Positions 52 through 20,851 of a stretch of 32,000 nucleotides of DNA are shown here, piece after piece. How positions within the stretch are numbered: position 1 is the first letter of the stretch; each line of letters starts with the position of its first letter. The stretch is from Candidatus Woesearchaeota archaeon (lineage in GTDB: Archaea; Nanobdellota; Nanobdellia; UBA10117). The position numbers and the translations under genes were made by a program. The notes below the pieces were generated by a model, which saw only the letters and a program-made list of their open reading frames with translations, was not told where the DNA came from and searched no databases. Where the stretch lies: contig CAZUEL010000002.1 of assembly GCA_964619325.1 (NCBI GenBank), positions 8,276 through 40,275 of the forward strand, in the 5' to 3' direction.

Positions 52-777
52 ATGGCCTCGAAACTCGCTTCGGTACGAAAAGCCTGTAATATAAATGATG
101 CTGCGTTCCGGGAAACTGTAAAACATTTTTCCGCCCAAGCCGAGCAGAGCTCGGCTGGGCCCAGCGGAACAAAAAGTTCCGCTTGGGAGTTCAAAACAGA
201 AAAAGATGTTGCTAAATTCCTGAACAATGAAATTAGAAAACGCGGGGCGAGGCTGGCCTTCAGAATAATTGTGGCAAATGGCCCGCACGCGTTTGAGTTA
301 CACCACAAGCCCTGCAAAAAAAGATTAAAACGCGGTTTCACTGTGATTGATTTTGGCGCAAAGGTAGGAAAGTATTGCTCGGACATGACTCGCACCGTTT
401 TCGTTGGCGAGCCGACAAAGCGGGAGCTGGAACTTTACAATTTAGTGAGAAACGCGCAGGTAAAGTGCGTCAAACTTTCAAAGCCTGGTGTTTTATGTTC
501 TTACATTGACCACAAAGCGTCCGTATTTCTGGGAAAGTACGCCCCAAACTTTATTCACGCGGTTGGCCACGGCATCGATAAACGAGTGCATGCAAGTCCA
601 AAAATCTCGCCAAGATCGCCGGACAAATTGCGAAACAGCGACGTAATTGCAATCGAGCCGGGCATTTATTTCAAAAAGCGGCTCGGAATCAGGATTGAAG
701 ACACGGTTTTAGTTAGGAAGAAACCGCTGGCACTAACTAAGTTTACAACTAAGTTAGTAAAAGTTCAAGCGAAGTAG
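52..777 (+). CDS. M24-family metallopeptidase (Xaa-Pro aminopeptidase/prolidase-like, pita-bread catalytic domain only)
   Basis: 241 aa. Metal-ligand pattern is present: IDFGAKVGKYCSDMTRT (D..D), GHGID (H), IEPGIYF (E), IRIEDTV (E). The promoter at the expected spacing supports ATG 52. Carries an 18-codon in-frame insertion at 134-187. Confidence 0.8.
   Translation: MASKLASVRKACNINDAAFRETVKHFSAQAEQSSAGPSGTKSSAWEFKTEKDVAKFLNNEIRKRGARLAFRIIVANGPHAFELHHKPCKKRLKRGFTVIDFGAKVGKYCSDMTRTVFVGEPTKRELELYNLVRNAQVKCVKLSKPGVLCSYIDHKASVFLGKYAPNFIHAVGHGIDKRVHASPKISPRSPDKLRNSDVIAIEPGIYFKKRLGIRIEDTVLVRKKPLALTKFTTKLVKVQAK
134..187 (+). repeat. 54-nt structured palindromic element, copy 1, in frame in the M24 gene
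   Basis: CCCAAG|CCGAGC-aga-GCTCGG|CTGGGCCCAG|CGGAAC-aaaaa-GTTCCG|CTTGGG. Same architecture and length as 2783-2836 on the other strand. Confidence 0.75.
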
Positions 778-3344
778 TTCTGCAGAGCCGCTTTATTCTT
801 TTCGATCCAAAATGTATTTCTCTTGATTGTTTCCAGCGAATTATTCACAACCATTTTGTATTCTATCTTGTGAGTTTTGAAAAACTTTTTGGCCTCTGCG
901 AGTTTTTCTCTGCCAGAATACGGCGTTGTAACATCTTCTAGTACGTCTACAAATAATTTTTCCGCAGACTTTAATTTTTCTATCTTTTTCCAATTACTTG
1001 CTGCCCAGTCCAGGAGGAATGGCCTGCAGAGTGGGTTTCCGCTGACTGAAGAAATAACCTGAGCTGTATCCTGCATACGAACATCTTTTGAAAATCCAAA
1101 TTCCAAAGTCTTTTTCAGTAAATCTGAATTTTTGAAACCCCCAAGCGAGCCGAGCAAAACCTTTTGCTCCTCGGGAACTTTTGTTTGTTTGTAAAATTGC
1201 ACAATTTGCGCGTATGTGTTTTCGCCTCCAGTCCTGGAGCCAACATACAAAATTGCGGAGCGCAAATCTGGGTGAATTTCTCTTGTCTTCAGATATTTTT
1301 CAAATAACTCTTTTCCGATTTTCAAAGCGCCGGAGTCTTCTGTAAACACCAAAAACTTTATTGCCAAGCTTCTTAGCAATCTATCTTCCTCTGGCTCATT
1401 TTCGCGAGGTTGCCAGCCGAGCCTTGCCAGCACTTTCCTAAAAGCTGGCCTGCAGATTTCCCTGAACTTCGGCCAAATTTCATTCCAAAAAGATTCCTGC
1501 GAGAAGAAATAATAAATCTGCCATAGATTCCCAAAAATATCTGCAAGCACGAGGAAGCTGTCCTCATTTCGGTACGCGCGCAGGAAGTCAAGATATTTAT
1601 CGATTGCCAGCTCGCCATGCTTCGTCAGCCTGAACAAATCGTTCTGTACGCCCCACCGGTCAGCTGCGGACAGTGTTTTGTTTCCCACCAATTGTCTTAG
1701 TTTCGCGAGATTTGCGTCCGAATATTTTACGCGGTAAAAGCCGGCCTGCCCGTAATTTAATTTGAACCACTCTGGCGCGGCATTTAATTTTATTACTGCA
1801 TTTTGTTTATCAAAAGTTGTTTTCACCTGCTCGGCGTTCGTTTTAATTACCAGTGGAATCGGCCAGACTGTCTTGTCTTTTAGCTGAAACGCAAATCGTT
1901 TTTGTTTTAACTCCAGATTATTTCCGTTCAGTTCTGCCTCCACCAACGGGAAGCCGGCCTGCCTAATCCACGCGTGCATAATTTTTTCCACGCTCTGCTT
2001 TGATGCAGAGGCGAGGCAGTCCCAAAAAGCTTCAGACGTTGCATTTTTGTACGCGTGGCGGTTTAGATACTTACTAACACCTCTGCGAAAATTTTCCTCC
2101 CCTAAATATGTGTCGAGCATTCTCAAGATGCTACCGCCCTTGTTGTAACTTATCGCATCAAAAACTTCTGTTATGTCGGTCGGCGTTTTAATTTCTACTT
2201 CGATCGGGTGCGTTGATTTGAGCGAATCCTCGTTCAGCGCGATCTCGGTCTCCTCGGAAATAAAGTCCTCCCAGATTTTCCACTGTGGGAAAATTTCGCC
2301 TGCCGCTTTGTAGGCCATATATGTTGCGAAGCTCTCGTTCAGCCATAAATCATTCCACCACTCCATCGTCACCAGATTTCCAGACCACTGGTGCCAGAGT
2401 TCGTGCGCGATCACTTCGGCGACGCGCTTCTTGATTGCGGTCGATGTAATCTTCGGGTCGAACAACAATAAAATTTCGCGGAACGTGATTATGCCCCAGT
2501 TCTCCATCGCCCCAGACTGAAAGTCCGGCAGCGCCACCAGATCCAGCTTGGGCAGCGGATATTTTACGCCGGAATAATCTTCGAAATATTTCAGGAACTT
2601 TTTTGTCAAGTCGAGGGCAAACTTTCCTTGCCTGCTTTTTCCTGGAACTGTTGCAACCCGAATTTCCACATCCTTGTATTTATCCTTCAGGAATTCAAAC
2701 TCGCCGACGCACAGGCACAAAAGATATGTAGACATCTTCGGCGAAGTCTGGAACGAAATAATTTTTTGTTTGCCGTCCTTTTCCCAAGAAAAAGCTTTGC
2801 TTTTTCTGGGCCCAGCCGAACTTGGTTCGGCTTGGGTTTCTTTTTTTATCGGCATGTTAGAAATCGCCTTCAGCGTTGAATCAATCCTGACTGTCAGATC
2901 GAAGGTTGCCTTGTAGGCCGGCTCGTCAAAGCACGGGAAGCACTTGCGCGCGTAGTGGGATTCGAACTGCGTGGCTGCGAGATATTTTTCTTTACCTTTG
3001 CTGCCTTTGTACTTACTTCTGTAAATACCGAGCAACGAATCATTAAGCGCGCCTGAGAATTCTATTATGAGTTTTCTACGGCCGCTGATTTTTTTATTAA
3101 ATTTCAGAATTAGCTGTTCATTTTTCGGGTTTAGTTTGATTTGTGGGGTTAGATTTTGTTTGTTTAGTATTAGCTGTGCACTTTTGATTTTCAGCTCTGC
3201 CGCATTTAACACAATCTCGTTTGTTGGCTTTGGAATTTCCAGATCGATTACCACGTTGCCGGCAAACCTGAACTTTTTTAAGTCCAAGTCAATAAATAAG
3301 TCGTAGTGCTTTGGCTTTGCGATTGCTGGCAAGCGGAAGTCCAT
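765..3344 (-). CDS. M1-family zinc aminopeptidase (tricorn-interacting-factor/aminopeptidase N-like)
   Basis: GAMENWG exopeptidase motif and HELWHQWSGNLVTMEWWNDLWLNESFA (HEXXH-x18-E). Start moved from 3413 to ATG 3344 (MDFRLP...) because tttaaa at 3366-3371 lies exactly 22 nt upstream. 859 aa. Confidence 0.9.
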   Translation of the reverse strand: MDFRLPAIAKPKHYDLFIDLDLKKFRFAGNVVIDLEIPKPTNEIVLNAAELKIKSAQLILNKQNLTPQIKLNPKNEQLILKFNKKISGRRKLIIEFSGALNDSLLGIYRSKYKGSKGKEKYLAATQFESHYARKCFPCFDEPAYKATFDLTVRIDSTLKAISNMPIKKETQAEPSSAGPRKSKAFSWEKDGKQKIISFQTSPKMSTYLLCLCVGEFEFLKDKYKDVEIRVATVPGKSRQGKFALDLTKKFLKYFEDYSGVKYPLPKLDLVALPDFQSGAMENWGIITFREILLLFDPKITSTAIKKRVAEVIAHELWHQWSGNLVTMEWWNDLWLNESFATYMAYKAAGEIFPQWKIWEDFISEETEIALNEDSLKSTHPIEVEIKTPTDITEVFDAISYNKGGSILRMLDTYLGEENFRRGVSKYLNRHAYKNATSEAFWDCLASASKQSVEKIMHAWIRQAGFPLVEAELNGNNLELKQKRFAFQLKDKTVWPIPLVIKTNAEQVKTTFDKQNAVIKLNAAPEWFKLNYGQAGFYRVKYSDANLAKLRQLVGNKTLSAADRWGVQNDLFRLTKHGELAIDKYLDFLRAYRNEDSFLVLADIFGNLWQIYYFFSQESFWNEIWPKFREICRPAFRKVLARLGWQPRENEPEEDRLLRSLAIKFLVFTEDSGALKIGKELFEKYLKTREIHPDLRSAILYVGSRTGGENTYAQIVQFYKQTKVPEEQKVLLGSLGGFKNSDLLKKTLEFGFSKDVRMQDTAQVISSVSGNPLCRPFLLDWAASNWKKIEKLKSAEKLFVDVLEDVTTPYSGREKLAEAKKFFKTHKIEYKMVVNNSLETIKRNTFWIEKNKAALQNYFA
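2783..2836 (-). repeat. 54-nt structured palindromic element, copy 2, in frame in the M1 gene
   Basis: Minus strand reads CCCAAG|CCGAAC-caa-GTTCGG|CTGGGCCCAG|AAAAAGC-aaa-GCTTTTT|CTTGGG. Closing helix and central palindrome are identical to copy 1; the stems covary. Confidence 0.75.
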
Positions 3345-3363
3345 GCAAATTACTGCTTTGTTT

Positions 3364-3373
3364 AGTTTAAAAC
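3364..3373 (-). promoter_or_regulatory. TATA box (gttttaaact) for the M1 aminopeptidase gene
   Basis: Last A of tttaaa is 22 nt upstream of ATG 3344. Confidence 0.55.
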
Positions 3374-3375
3374 AT

Positions 3376-3528
3376 TTACGAGCTAAACGCGGCGAGAATG
3401 CTCGAGCCGGCAATCACCAACGCAAGGCCAAGAACTTTCATTAGCGTTACTGACTCGCCCAAAAAGAATCCAATTATCGAAGCGATTGCAGCAATGACTG
3501 CAAAAATTATTCCGGGCGGGATTATCAT
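3376..3528 (-). CDS. possible 50-aa two-helix membrane peptide
   Basis: My own translation: MIIPPGIIFAVIAAIASIIGFFLGESVTLMKVLGLALVIAGSSILAAFSS. Below the ORF-track cutoff, strongly hydrophobic, no family recognised. Confidence 0.3.
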   Translation of the reverse strand: MIIPPGIIFAVIAAIASIIGFFLGESVTLMKVLGLALVIAGSSILAAFSS

Positions 3529-4724: not shown

Positions 4725-7352
4725 ATGGGTGAGTTGGAGCAAAGGCGGTCTGAACTTTTCAGCAGGATAAGCGCCACGCTAAGCGCTAAGCCAGGCGTAG
4801 CCGGTAAGCCCAGCCTTTTTTCCGGCAGGTTTGCGGAGTTGCCCTACTGGCTGCTGTTAATCCCAATCGTGGTTCTCGCGGCCTGGGTGCGGACAAGAAA
4901 CCTTGGCCTGCTAGTCGGCAAGTACTTGATAGAGCTGGACTCCTATTTGTGGTATCGATATGCAAAAATAATCTTTGACACGGGTGCACTACCCGCAATT
5001 GACACTGCTAGGTATGTTCCAGTCGGCGTCGACACATCTCAGTATGCTTTTTTTTCATACACACTGGCGTACTTCTATAAATTTATCCATATGTTTTTTC
5101 CAAGCTTACAACAGATAACTTGGCATGTCTATTACCCCGTTGTTGTAACCGTACTGAGTTTGCCCTTCTTCTTCTTGTTTGTCAGAAAAATTACAAACGT
5201 GCGAGTTGCGGTTGTTGCAACGGCTTTCCTCACAGTGATCCCTGCTTACATTCAGAGGACTTCTGCTGGCTTTGCAGACCACGAAGCGATGGCGATGTTG
5301 TGGATGTTTATTGCACTGATGTTTTTTGCATACATGTGGACTGAAAAGGATTGGAAAAAGTCCATCTCATTCGGTGCGCTTGGTGGTTTATTCGCCGGAT
5401 TCATGGCTGGCACGTGGGGCGGATTTGCCTATCTAGCAGCAACACTCGGTATATTTTTAGCCACGATGCTTCTATTCTCAAAGATTTCTGCGCCACAGTA
5501 TAAAGGCTATATCACGTTTTATATTATTCTAGCCGTAACTTATGCAATAACAAAATACACACCAATCATTTCATTCCTGAAATCACAGGATGGCCTGTAT
5601 ATGCTATTCCCAATAATTGTTGTTGGCGCGTACTGGCTGACAAAACTACCCAAATTAGACTCCTTCCTGCAAAAAATTGATGCAGTCCTACCACGGCAGG
5701 CCCTCGTAACGGCCTTGCTATTTGCAATTGGCATTGTGATTGGGCAGTTGTTAGGTATAATAGATTTACACTCAATCTACCAGTCCTTGACAAGAGCTAA
5801 CCCAAACCGATGGACAACAACAGTTGCGGAAAATGCATCGCCGTTCTTCTTCGGTGGTGGCGGGTGGTGGGACAGCTTCGGCTGGGCACTTCTATTTGCC
5901 CTGGCTGGCGGCGTTCTGCTATCTATTTACATCTTCAAGAACAGGGAATTCGGTGTCTTTGACCTCAAAAGGCAGATGTATGCGTATATTGCCGGAGCAA
6001 TTTATGTTCTATTCTTCTCTGGCTTTATATTTGGAAGATATAATTCTGGTGGAAGATTCCAAACAATCATTAACTTTTTCTCGAAATACTACATAAGCTG
6101 GCTGTTAATGTCACTAGCTGCATTTGTGCTTCTCTACCTATGCATGTATTACAAAGACAGGGTTGCTTTTGTAAACACCTTCACAGAGGACAAGTGGGTA
6201 ATGGTGTTATTATTTGTGTTCTTCAGTTTTTCGCTAGTGGGCTCACGAATATTAATCCGCCTCATGTTCGGTCTCTCTCCAGCAGTGGCGCTGGTAGCTG
6301 CATGGTTCATGTTGCGCGCGATAGAAAAAACATCCAGCCACAACAAAACAAAAATCATTGCAATTATTTTAGTGTTGTTTATGCTACTTTCTTTTTACTC
6401 GCTTGCCAGAACGTCCTACAACATTAATCGCACGATGGGTTCGATGGTGCCCGGCCAGTGGGAAGCTGCAATGAATTTCCTAAATAGTAGCACTCCGGAA
6501 GATTCTGTGGTGACACACTGGTGGGATTATGGTCACATGACTACTGCCGTTGGGGCGCGACGCGCCGTGACTGACGGTGGAAACCTGATGAGCTGGAATC
6601 ACGCGTCCGGCAGGTACTTCCTTACTGGAAAAGATAGCCAGTCTACGCTGGAATACTTATATTCACACCAAGTTAATTATACTCTTATATCGAACCAGGA
6701 AATTTCGAAGTATTATGCATTTTCGCTCATTGGCTCGGACGACAGCCTAGATCGGCTCAGCACAATTGGCATGTTTGGCCTGCAAGACAAGCGCGAGGCA
6801 CGGGACGGCGATCTGGTGTTATATGGTGGACAGTGGACTTTTGACAGCGATATCACCACTGGTGATGTAGTGTTACCGCGCGGCGGGGCGCAAATACAAG
6901 GTTTCTCCCTTCTCGTAAAGAACAACGGCGTGGCAGAGGTTAAAGCATACATTTCTAACAATGGTAATCGGCTTATTTTCGATGTCGGTTGCCTGTACAT
7001 ACACACCTACCGAGCTGGATCAAACGCATATATTTATGGCAACAGGAGATCTTTCCCGCAGACAGAAAATACGCTGCCTGGTTGTCTGGTGATTGTTCCA
7101 TTCATCGATAATTCCGCAGTCAACGATCAAGGTGCAGCATTCTGGCTCTCAGGCAAAGTCTGGGCTACAAATTTTGCAAGGCTGTACATGTACGGCGAGG
7201 ATGATAAAAACTTCCAGCAGGTTTACTCAGACGCACTACCACTGGGCTTTTACAACGGCCAGCCAATCGGTCCGATAAAAATCTGGAAAGTCCAATACCC
7301 TGAAGGTGTTAAGACCGATCCGAAATACCTGGAGCCAAGCCCGTACGGTTAG
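4725..7352 (+). CDS. aglB: archaeal oligosaccharyltransferase AglB (STT3 family)
   Basis: 875 aa. Polytopic N-terminal half, then the catalytic WWDYGH motif (THWWDYGHMTT) and a soluble C-terminal domain. Confidence 0.9.
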   Translation: MGELEQRRSELFSRISATLSAKPGVAGKPSLFSGRFAELPYWLLLIPIVVLAAWVRTRNLGLLVGKYLIELDSYLWYRYAKIIFDTGALPAIDTARYVPVGVDTSQYAFFSYTLAYFYKFIHMFFPSLQQITWHVYYPVVVTVLSLPFFFLFVRKITNVRVAVVATAFLTVIPAYIQRTSAGFADHEAMAMLWMFIALMFFAYMWTEKDWKKSISFGALGGLFAGFMAGTWGGFAYLAATLGIFLATMLLFSKISAPQYKGYITFYIILAVTYAITKYTPIISFLKSQDGLYMLFPIIVVGAYWLTKLPKLDSFLQKIDAVLPRQALVTALLFAIGIVIGQLLGIIDLHSIYQSLTRANPNRWTTTVAENASPFFFGGGGWWDSFGWALLFALAGGVLLSIYIFKNREFGVFDLKRQMYAYIAGAIYVLFFSGFIFGRYNSGGRFQTIINFFSKYYISWLLMSLAAFVLLYLCMYYKDRVAFVNTFTEDKWVMVLLFVFFSFSLVGSRILIRLMFGLSPAVALVAAWFMLRAIEKTSSHNKTKIIAIILVLFMLLSFYSLARTSYNINRTMGSMVPGQWEAAMNFLNSSTPEDSVVTHWWDYGHMTTAVGARRAVTDGGNLMSWNHASGRYFLTGKDSQSTLEYLYSHQVNYTLISNQEISKYYAFSLIGSDDSLDRLSTIGMFGLQDKREARDGDLVLYGGQWTFDSDITTGDVVLPRGGAQIQGFSLLVKNNGVAEVKAYISNNGNRLIFDVGCLYIHTYRAGSNAYIYGNRRSFPQTENTLPGCLVIVPFIDNSAVNDQGAAFWLSGKVWATNFARLYMYGEDDKNFQQVYSDALPLGFYNGQPIGPIKIWKVQYPEGVKTDPKYLEPSPYG

Positions 7353-14926: not shown

Positions 14927-14940
14927 CTTTCAGCTTTATG

Positions 14941-15269
14941 GAGCGGGGTAAGTGAGTTGCACACTTCTCTTCCGCTCTCGGACCCGCAGGGGGCTCTGCC
15001 CCCTTCAGGTGGACGCTCACCCTGACAAACAAAACCAAAGGTTTTGTTATACAGCAAAACTTCGTTTTGCTTGTACCCCCGGCGCCATCTTCGATGGCGC
15101 GAAGGAACCACGAGGCGTCCCAGCACATATCCCGAACCTGCAAAGTTGCATCAAACTTTGTTTGATGCGACGACTTCTTTCTTTGGATGCCCGGGAGCCT
15201 TTCTTTCCGTCAGAAGAAAGAAAGGCTGCCGCTGCAGGCGGACGCATAGCTGATCTGCCAACCCCGCTT
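14941..15269 (-). ncRNA. unassigned structured RNA (~330 nt): either a stable ncRNA or a structured 5' leader
   Basis: Non-coding gap, about 55% GC by hand count. Terminal helix pairs 15261-15268 with 14942-14949. Six near-perfect hairpins. The consensus promoter predicts a TSS at 15269. Confidence 0.55.
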
Positions 15270-15290
15270 AATTTAGCGACTGGCTCTAAC

Positions 15291-15304
15291 TTTAAATAGG
15301 TTTT
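15291..15304 (-). promoter_or_regulatory. BRE/TATA promoter (aaaacctatttaaa) for the structured RNA
   Basis: 14-nt identity with the map promoter at 19923-19936. The map spacing (22 nt) places the TSS at 15269, the first base of the terminal helix. Confidence 0.6.
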
Positions 15305-19957: not shown

Positions 19958-20851
19958 ATGTACTCCAAATCTGAACTCGACAAACTGATGAAGGCAGGCC
20001 AGATAGCAGCGAAAGCCCGCGAATACGGAAAAACCCTGGTGAAAGAGGGCGCTTCCGTTCTGGAGATCGCAGATAAAATAGAGGCAAAGATGATTGAGCT
20101 GGGTGGCCAGCCTGCGTTCCCGACAGATGTTTCGATTAATGAGATGGCTGCACACCACTGCCCCGCGTTCGGCGAAAAAACAATTCTGAAAAAAGGTGAC
20201 CTGGTAAAACTAGATTTAGGCGCACACATTGATGGATACATGTCCGACACCGCGGTCACGATCTCGGTTGGAAATGTAAAGGAGGATTTACTGCTGATAA
20301 AAGCTGTCGAAGATGCACTTGCTGCTGCAATTAAATTAGCAACACCGGGCCGCGAAGTTTGGGAAATCGGCAAGGCCATCCAGGACACAATCACAAAGGC
20401 CGGCTTCGCTCCAATCCGGAACTTATCGGGCCACTTGATACAAAGGCATGACCTGCACTCGGACATCACAATTCCAAACACAAACAACCGGAACAAAACA
20501 AAACTGGAGGACGGCATGGTAATCGCAATCGAGCCATTCGCAACACCCGGCGACGGCTTGGTCAATGATGTCCGCGAGTTCCAAGTTTTCCGCGTTAAGA
20601 ACGTAAAAAATATGCGCACCAACCGCGACGTTTTAGAATTTGTTTTAGATACTTACGAAACAATGCCGTTCTGCGCACGCTGGCTCATCAAAAAGTTTGG
20701 CGTGCTGAAAACCAATCTCGCTCTGAAGGAAATGGTTGCGAAAGGGATTCTGCACGAGTACACTGGCCTCAAAGAAATTTCAGAAAAAAACGCAGCGCAG
20801 GCCGAACATACTATCATCATCGGCCAGACACCGGTTGTTACAACAGCTTAG
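19958..20851 (+). CDS. map: methionine aminopeptidase, type 2 (archaeal)
   Basis: 297 aa. FPTDVSINEMAAHH, DLGAHIDGYMSDTA, GHLIQRHDLH, IEPFAT and AQAEHTIII, plus the type-2 helical insert. Confidence 0.95.
   Translation: MYSKSELDKLMKAGQIAAKAREYGKTLVKEGASVLEIADKIEAKMIELGGQPAFPTDVSINEMAAHHCPAFGEKTILKKGDLVKLDLGAHIDGYMSDTAVTISVGNVKEDLLLIKAVEDALAAAIKLATPGREVWEIGKAIQDTITKAGFAPIRNLSGHLIQRHDLHSDITIPNTNNRNKTKLEDGMVIAIEPFATPGDGLVNDVREFQVFRVKNVKNMRTNRDVLEFVLDTYETMPFCARWLIKKFGVLKTNLALKEMVAKGILHEYTGLKEISEKNAAQAEHTIIIGQTPVVTTA

Follow-up and report, generated by a model that had tools for sequence, protein, structure and literature searches.

Short palindromic mobile elements with in-frame insertion form a kind that is already known. 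Rickettsia palindromic elements (RPEs) are bacterial palindromic repeats of about 100-150 bp, found in frame in unrelated housekeeping genes and forming sequence families with a conserved peptide (PMC10969869). Repetitive extragenic palindromic (REP) doublets forming hairpins (REPINs) are thought to be moved by a dimer of the REP-associated tyrosine transposase (RAYT) and can adopt a two-hairpin 'clover' fold (PMC3116915). [quoted passage not shown] This element is a 54-nt palindromic cassette lying in the reading frame of an M24 peptidase gene, in a 32,000-nt stretch of DNA (the window) from a Candidatus Woesearchaeota archaeon (assembly GCA_964619325.1, contig CAZUEL010000002.1, positions 8,276 to 40,275 of the forward strand).

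In our view the cassette is likely to be a member of a family of non-autonomous mobile DNA elements, miniature in size (49-57 bp), that occurs in DPANN archaea. The architecture of the family is CCCA-A-G stem loop stem' CTGGG followed by CCCAG stem loop stem' C-T-TGGG, in which the feet of 5-6 nt are conserved and the stems of 5-7 bp vary freely yet remain perfectly complementary. Insertion sites were found at unrelated positions, intergenic and genic; insertion was precise and without target duplication, and copies also nested in other small repeats. The first-pass annotation knew of no archaeal equivalent, and the searchable literature yielded no description of the motif or of an in-frame palindromic element in DPANN, the family being previously undescribed there. 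Papers containing CTGGGCCCAG were retrieved and set aside as apparently unrelated, the ten listed being mostly antibody-cloning work.

Two copies are present in the window with the letters, coordinates, codon position and peptides that the annotation had given. Copy 1 (134-187, plus strand) reads CCCAAG / CCGAGC-aga-GCTCGG / CTGGGCCCAG / CGGAAC-aaaaa-GTTCCG / CTTGGG and encodes (A)QAEQSSAGPSGTKSSAW(E) in the M24 frame, whereas copy 2 (2783-2836, minus strand) reads CCCAAG / CCGAAC-caa-GTTCGG / CTGGGCCCAG / AAAAAGC-aaa-GCTTTTT / CTTGGG and encodes (T)QAEPSSAGPRKSKAFSW(E) in the frame of an M1 aminopeptidase. In both cases the first base occupies codon position 2 of a long open reading frame (ORF; 52-777 on the plus strand and 765-3413 on the minus strand). 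The pattern CCCAAG-N13-19-CTGGGCCCAG-N13-19-CTTGGG matched the window at these two places only (0.00 matches expected from 100 dinucleotide shuffles), and the folding energies of the copies, -36.6 and -29.9 kcal/mol, corresponded to z = -7.1 and -4.9. The proposed identity of both hosts was borne out by homology to prolidase/M24 proteins (E about 1e-35 with the best solved relatives) and to puromycin-sensitive aminopeptidase (PSA) and ERAP1 (E about 1e-166).

The alignment of orthologues, one of the checks suggested beforehand, gave the same result for both proteins: exactly 18 residues of the window sequence were missing from 39/39 other orthologues of M24 and likewise from 39/39 of M1 (the 39 best aligned), including relatives at about 75-86% identity. 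Two M1 relatives at 75-76% identity (L068 and L069; L numbers denote fetched loci) displayed the empty site at the DNA level, with an exact 54-nt insertion in the window and no duplication. Removal of the 54 nt from the window M1 gene leaves ATA AAA AAA GAA A/AA AAG GAC GGC (IKKEKKDGK), colinear with IKSEKRVGK of the relatives; since the filled gene minus exactly CCCAAG...CTTGGG is colinear with the empty site, no target-site duplication accompanied the insertion. The same removal in M24 gives HFSEFKTEKD, as in the orthologue P0126. The M1 insert is situated where human PSA shows a gap, in a loop belonging to the N-terminal domain.

Presence of the copies varied among close relatives. The M24 copy was found at the same site only in the sister genome GCA_053535775.1 (L069), the M1 gene of which carries a 48-nt degenerate copy of its own elsewhere (L069 2166-2213, 16 extra residues), absent from the window and from all the others. 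The gene of the pseudouridine synthase TruD in L020 (5852-7099, minus strand) contains three in-frame copies in differing states of decay (6155-6208, 6456-6506 and 6752-6805), its product reaching 415 aa vs. the usual 359, and TruD orthologues have inserts at yet other positions. In addition, near-identical copies (1-3 differences) occurred where the flanking sequences, from 10-25 nt outwards, are unrelated, thus reflecting recent spread and not constraint. On this ground the loci L018/L037/L043/L053 and L051/L057 were rejected as orthologous pairs: they carry the same composite repeat at unrelated positions, with flanks about 50% different beyond 10-25 nt. As regards the target, only an A/T-rich bias at -3 to -1 was apparent, and the bases directly to the left of the insertion varied (GAAA, TCCG, AAAG and others). 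Neither a target-site duplication nor a terminal helix that continues into flanking DNA was retained as a feature, as 42/50 copies lacked such a continuation and direct repeats did not exceed the expectation for A/T-rich flanks. The possibility that stems are copied from the target flanks was also discarded: shared substrings measured 3.67 vs. 3.41 expected, a slight excess due to composite duplicates and composition, and no fixed register was in excess once duplicates were collapsed.

The family was surveyed with a spaced-core pattern in one genome per GTDB species (32 loci) and in JGI/ENA metagenomes (35 loci). These scans demanded an intact 22-nt core, so that its invariance in the scanned set follows from the pattern itself. 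Hairpin-bearing loci amounted to 31 in the GTDB species genomes and about 30 in the metagenomes, that is, about 60 further copies of the kind that the annotation had proposed to look for. Carriers were metagenome-assembled genomes (MAGs) of Woesearchaeota, Pacearchaeota, Nanoarchaeota or 'Nanobdellati', with a few bins labelled Methanosarcinales, and both variable segments of every archaeal match formed hairpins. Five matches in GC-rich bacterial contigs (L025, L040, L047, L048 and L062) had variable segments without hairpins and were about as numerous as expected for 22 specified bases, which indicated chance matches. Stem flavours were lineage-specific (TCGNN, AAAAN and CCGAA/CGAAA/CGGAA). 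A covariance model, built from the scanned copies and run over the fetched loci and the window, recovered about 17 more, diverged copies in the loci and one in the window (15028-15075). The length of the copies ranged from 49 to 57 nt, 64% being multiples of three (3n). No element copy was found in viral contigs. A sister family with identical architecture has the core CCAGAG / CTTGGCCAAG / CT(C/T)TGG (L020 1934-1995 and L071 1943-2002); exact-core scans therefore caught only part of a wider superfamily.

Minimum-energy folding (RNAfold, all four strands) gave two adjacent hairpins of 11-12 bp with one bulged base each (-30 to -37 kcal/mol), in which hairpin 1 is enclosed by CCCA(A)G paired with CTGGG, and hairpin 2 by CCCAG paired with C(T)TGGG. 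The annotation had proposed instead a closing helix around both hairpins with the central palindrome left free. This is a possible pairing, mutually exclusive with the two-hairpin fold, but the latter was preferred both by RNAfold and by the diverged copies, whose cores keep its pairs through changes on both sides where a closing helix would mismatch. Examples are CGCAAG...CTGCG and CACAG...CTTGTG in L007 (3143), CCCAT...ATTGGG in L011 (1563), CCCAAT...ATGGG and CCCAA...TTTGGG in L021 (5694) and TCCACG...CGGGA in L002 (495), a further diverged copy in L036 (183) having compensatory core changes that fit the same fold. This indicated that the unit is a mirror-image doublet of bulged hairpins. 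All apparent singlets proved to be degenerate doublets, no isolated half-element being found among them. As the architecture is its own reverse complement, the description of both window copies as sense-oriented retains little meaning, only the loops carrying polarity.

Pairing in the stems was nearly complete. Among 52 non-redundant copies, 99/104 hairpins combined a perfectly paired stem (5 bp or longer) with a loop of 3-6 nt; stem positions 1-5 held Watson-Crick pairs in 515/520 cases and G.T in none, with 3-4 pair types per position. In the model alignment, 98.9% of the cells were paired, G.U accounting for about 5/2453, and the covariation test suggested in the first-pass annotation counted 591 double-sided changes vs. 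175 ± 14 in column shuffles. Pairing fell to 24-58% when the partner was slid by one to three columns. Both DNA strands form equally good hairpins. The near-total lack of G.T(U) pairs, together with the equivalence of the strands, pointed to pairing that is needed or generated at the DNA level; from these sequence patterns we infer that it is in DNA, whether single-stranded or cruciform, and not in RNA that the hairpins are important. The earlier proposal of selection on nucleic-acid structure rather than on the peptide is sustained by stem covariation and by peptides that depend on phase, and the absence of G.T points, as a refinement, to palindromy of the DNA and not to structure of the RNA. 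The family has diversified by whole-pair changes with no visible intermediates. Arm-to-arm template switching in quasi-palindromes, or quasipalindrome correction, yields changes of this whole-pair type.

The location of the copies depended on their length. Considering only copies with enough flanking DNA to judge, 16/30 of 3n length lay in long ORFs vs. 1/16 of the others (odds ratio 17, Fisher P = 0.0016), the single exception being situated in a low-complexity membrane-protein ORF (L015) with a frame that is not checkable. Openness to translation is intrinsic to the family: on average 5.0 of the six frames were free of stop codons, and 46% of the copies were open in all six, as compared to 3.0 frames in shuffles and 4.4 in palindrome-preserving shuffles; intergenic non-3n copies were as open as genic ones. 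Copies occurred in all three phases, and the peptides were then entirely different (for instance PK...LGP...LG and PSR...WAQ...LG), which indicated that the conserved object is the nucleic acid and not the peptide. Since genic copies are almost always 3n and their frames are open, they appear to be read through and not spliced, and would add a surface loop of 16-19 residues to the host protein. In agreement with the loop position that structure prediction was expected to reveal, the AlphaFold2 model of M24 (mean pLDDT 94) placed residues 28-48 in a low-confidence coil (pLDDT about 54) between two confident helices (4-27 and 50-63), the insert thus being modelled as a disordered loop. The computational checks suggested with the annotation all spoke in favour of its reading.

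Judged on its sequence, the element seems to work like an RPE without being a member of that group. It shares with RPEs the in-frame insertion in unrelated genes, the retained coding, a peptide segment compatible with the fold and hosts that are symbionts with reduced genomes; it differs in size (49-57 bp), in having about 22 nt of conserved feet with free stems, in a peptide set by phase and in its DPANN hosts. The RPE analogy first drawn thus applies to in-frame genic insertion and read-through, whereas size, consensus peptide and host speak against membership. In architecture it appears to resemble REPINs, which are likewise inverted doublets of hairpin palindromes with two alternative folds (a long pairing and the 'clover'), encode no protein and cluster or nest (PMC3116915). 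REPINs, however, are extragenic, pair identical REPs and have a flanking RAYT, in contrast with the unlike hairpins of the element and the genic location of half of its copies; it therefore fails on extragenic location and on identical REPs. No RAYT/Y1 gene was found in the window or, by a weak test, in the 536 kb of fetched loci.

With MITEs, including those of Sulfolobus and the palindrome-associated transposable elements (PATEs) of Haloquadratum, the family has in common that it is small, non-autonomous, multicopy and bounded by terminal inverted repeats, CCCAAG...CTTGGG, here of 6 nt only. It differs from them in lacking a target-site duplication, in lying at the extreme lower limit of size, in having no recognisable parent IS within the 2-14-kb loci and in the proportion of 3n copies placed in ORFs given above, as against about 89% of archaeal MITEs being intergenic (PMC11602168). 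Like IS200/IS605-derived elements such as PATEs, it has hairpins abutting both ends and no target-site duplication; unlike them, it shows no fixed tetra- or pentanucleotide target, and PATE ends are strand-asymmetric, in contrast with an element that equals its own reverse complement in structure. The small dispersed repeats (SDRs) of heterocystous cyanobacteria, which Elhai et al. (2008, cited in PMC3116915) reportedly described, are likewise mobile, fall far below 100 nt in length, conserve their secondary structure, are often nested in one another and have no known mobilising enzyme. They are said to measure 21-27 nt and to be bacterial and mostly intergenic, in contrast with the 49-57 bp and the DPANN hosts of the present family.

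For the movement of the family we infer a trans-acting, structure-specific enzyme that would bind the hairpins and recognise or cut at the conserved feet, much as HUH/Y1 enzymes act at the ends of IS200/IS605 and as RAYTs are proposed to act on REPINs. Template switching from arm to arm within the palindromes would keep the stems perfect while they drift by whole base pairs. A further and rather doubtful step would be to see here an archaeal equivalent of partnerships of the REPIN-RAYT type, or else an insertion system that is directed by hairpins and wholly new. A conserved, structure-specific enzyme present throughout DPANN would then read bulged DNA hairpins through the invariant 5-6-nt feet, tolerate any stem and leave no target duplication; host constraint, which the conserved M24 and TruD copies suggest, would hold the copies in place, and the element would systematically remodel surface loops across the proteomes of its reduced-genome hosts.

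Several observations weigh against an interpretation as mobile DNA. No transposase or HUH nuclease was present among the 30 ORFs of the window, and tblastn with IS608/IS200 TnpA queries, a weak test, gave no match in the 536 kb of fetched DNA. A conserved target tetranucleotide like that of IS200/IS605 was not seen, nor were isolated half-elements flanking a gene. Stem perfection is partly a matter of ascertainment, as the requirement for an intact core favours young copies, and many diverged copies carry mismatches. The M24 copy shared by the window and L069 differed at 3/54 positions, all of them in loops, while the remainder of the gene was 22% divergent (P = 9e-4 for three differences or fewer, and P = 9e-6 for none in the 46 stem and core positions). 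The middle TruD copy (L020 6456-6506) is common to GCA_053535875.1 (L070 1676-1726); it is old and already degenerate, with 4/6 pairs of hairpin 1 replaced by other Watson-Crick pairs, but the other 37 nt, which are contiguous, were identical while the genes differ at 28% of positions, and the flanks diverge right to the edges of the element. Such conservation would not be expected of an insert that is purely selfish and decaying, two pairs being too few to settle the matter. Moreover, the loops, the only asymmetric part of the element, were co-oriented in purine skew within a copy (36 vs. 10, P = 1.6e-4), and in genic copies the purine-rich side was on the sense strand (60% A, 8% T). This fits selection for hydrophilic loop residues, without amounting to proof, and the polarity could hint at a constraint at the RNA or the protein level.

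What speaks most for a functional cis-element, whether its function is original or came with domestication, is the sharp-edged conservation of the two orthologous copies relative to their host genes. Such an element would act through mRNA structure (stability, ribosome pausing or protein binding) or as a DNA site for a conserved DPANN protein, its dispersal being mere delivery. The identity of the core across very divergent DPANN lineages and the purine-rich polarity of the loops, some of them GNRA-like (GCAA, GAAA), would agree with it. We nevertheless judge this explanation improbable, because G.U pairs are so scarce (about 5/2453 cells and 0/520), unlike RNA stems under selection, copies lie in unrelated genes and intergenic DNA with no common context, and copies have been gained recently and are absent from close relatives; the mismatches of many diverged copies, the lack of an Rfam match and the dependence of the conservation argument on only two orthologous pairs count in the same direction. 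Were the hairpins instead incidental to an ancestral or convergent peptide under selection in the protein, the similar peptides of the window copies (xQAExSSAGP...W) would be explained, but the absence of the insert from 39/39 orthologues of each protein, the unrelated peptides of copies in other phases, the many intergenic copies and the disordered loop modelled for M24 leave this alternative hardly any probability, the orthologue alignments and phase-dependent peptides refuting the ancestral-peptide reading.

Removal from the RNA, as an archaeal intron or intervening sequence cut out by the splicing endonuclease or another activity, would leave the protein unaffected, and both the archaeal hosts and a symmetry like that of an endonuclease substrate could be cited for it. 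Introns of archaeal tRNA, rRNA and rarely mRNA have a bulge-helix-bulge, with two 3-nt bulges separated by 4 bp. The element has no such motif, only single-base bulges and no pairing with its flanks; all frames are kept open; and the almost exclusive 3n length of genic copies, with non-3n copies avoiding ORFs, argues against splicing, which would make the restriction unnecessary. Candidate non-3n ORF copies that might have spoken for splicing did not hold, as L002 and L004 have theirs in intergenic DNA, after a stop and before the following ATG, and the ORF in L058 looks spurious. An intron is very unlikely. An assembly or adapter artefact might be suspected since every source genome is a metagenome assembly. 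With a chance expectation of zero in the window, assemblies from many independent projects, lineage-specific stems, copies in frame in conserved genes and the same site occupied in two related genomes, however, chance and artefact are refuted and keep the most negligible probability of all. Taken together, we favour a family of miniature mobile elements.

If confirmed, this would be, as far as the searchable literature shows, the first in-frame palindromic mobile element described for archaea, among the smallest mobile units known, and a very clean natural case of freely varying stems whose pairing stays perfect in the DNA. Its relevance extends to the way in which ultra-small DPANN genomes put up with, and perhaps make use of, selfish DNA and to the origin of new surface loops in conserved enzymes. 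The invariant feet offer a simple probe for the mobilising enzyme by phylogenetic profiling. There are also consequences for annotation, where protein lengths are inflated, and for MAG assembly: copies lay less than 100 nt from true contig ends in L024 (9-59), L038 (3-55), L045 (1533-1584), L050 (27-79) and L067 (1204-1256), which suggests that the repeats disrupt the assembly of metagenomes and that counts made in MAGs are too low.

Table 1. Element copies, half-elements and host genes in the window.
Feature	Position	Strand	Description
Element copy 1	134-187	+	54 nt, phase 1 in the M24 peptidase gene; 66 bits, E 2e-13
Copy 1, half-element 1	134-159	+	CCCA-A-G + CCGAGC aga GCTCGG + CTGGG, bulged hairpin; minimum-energy fold and core covariation in diverged copies
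Copy 1, half-element 2	160-187	+	CCCAG + CGGAAC aaaaa GTTCCG + C-T-TGGG, mirror-image bulged hairpin; minimum-energy fold and core covariation
Element copy 2	2783-2836	-	54 nt, phase 1 in the M1 aminopeptidase gene
Probable third copy, diverged	15028-15075		48 nt, intergenic; cmsearch 22 bits, E = 6e-4, filters off
Host gene 1	52-777	+	Short M24 (Xaa-Pro peptidase-like) protein, 241 aa; insert = residues 28-46, between helix 4-27 and helix 50-63
Host gene 2	768-3344	-	M1 family aminopeptidase (tricorn-interacting-factor F2/F3-like), 859 aa from ATG

The intergenic segment detected with the covariance model (Table 1) reads AACAAAACC-aaa-GGTTTTGTT + aTACAG-CAAAAC-ttc-GTTTTG-CTTGTA, with core pairs altered on both sides; by its sequence it is probably a third, diverged copy, the match being weak. 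Of the window's nine perfect hairpins with 8 bp or more, five (15028-15048, 15053-15071, 15082-15100, 15148-15168 and 15196-15227) lie in the spacer that holds this segment (14927-15304), between an S51 peptidase gene and the next ORF, and the remaining four are those of copies 1 and 2. A GC-rich stretch (14940-15020) lies upstream of the five spacer hairpins. The spacer could consist of several decayed elements lying together, or could encode a structured RNA that has gone unrecognised; compared with Rfam it gave noise-level matches only, nothing reached the gathering score when Rfam models were run over the whole window, and no tRNA genes were found in the window.

Three of the element-bearing contigs (L001, L002 and L024) belong to MAGs labelled 'uncultured Methanosarcinales archaeon' (binchicken co-assemblies). 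L002 and L024, from one bin, carry the flanking repeat of Woesearchaeota type, which suggests mis-binned DPANN contigs or mislabelled bins and not presence in Methanosarcinales. In groundwater Woesearchaeota, copies with TCG stems were observed within a second small hairpin repeat, GACCCTTTT-nnn-AAAAGGGTCAATC(A/C)AAAAACGA (L002 6021, L004 1881, L007 3284, L013 1417, L022 825, L023 3556, L024 9 and L031 5130); their varying positions inside it indicated nested insertions. The second repeat often lies directly upstream of a start codon or a tRNA gene (L022 and L031) and may be a promoter- or terminator-like mobile module.

AT-rich lineages displayed a longer composite repeat, ...GGGAAGATACATCTAAG followed by a 57-nt core and AAACCGTTAGGTGTCGTAGAT... 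(L018 2301, L037 2463, L043 190, L053 8112 and L061 1127). It occurs in the same phase in unrelated genes, for example at the N-terminus of a translation GTPase-like protein, with the product (N/K)SRE(D/N)TSK-PKKIIRNFLGPENQEGFLG-KPLGVVD, and is closer to RPEs in size and behaviour than the core element. L051 (502-554) and L057 (3005-3058) share a larger repeat of ~150 nt, bounded by AGGGCAA...TTGCCCT, with the core element inside. These two differ in the orientation of the loops of both hairpins, each turned round in place (CTT vs. AAG, and CTTG vs. CAATG), and by two whole-pair changes in one stem, the other stem being the same in both; this looks like a flipping of individual hairpins at the DNA level.

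The window's nearest relatives are GCA_053535775.1, GCA_053535875.1 and JACOYC01. The M24 and M1 genes are convergent, and their 3' ends overlap by 13 nt (765-777) including both stop codons, the same overlap being present in L069 (3268-3280). A second gene of the M24 family (19958-20851, plus strand, 297 aa), probably a methionine aminopeptidase, has no element. The other genes of the window are those of an ordinary archaeal chromosome (AglB/STT3, glycosyltransferases, CysRS, family-B DNA polymerase, Cdc48, a RadA-like protein, topoisomerase I and SerRS).

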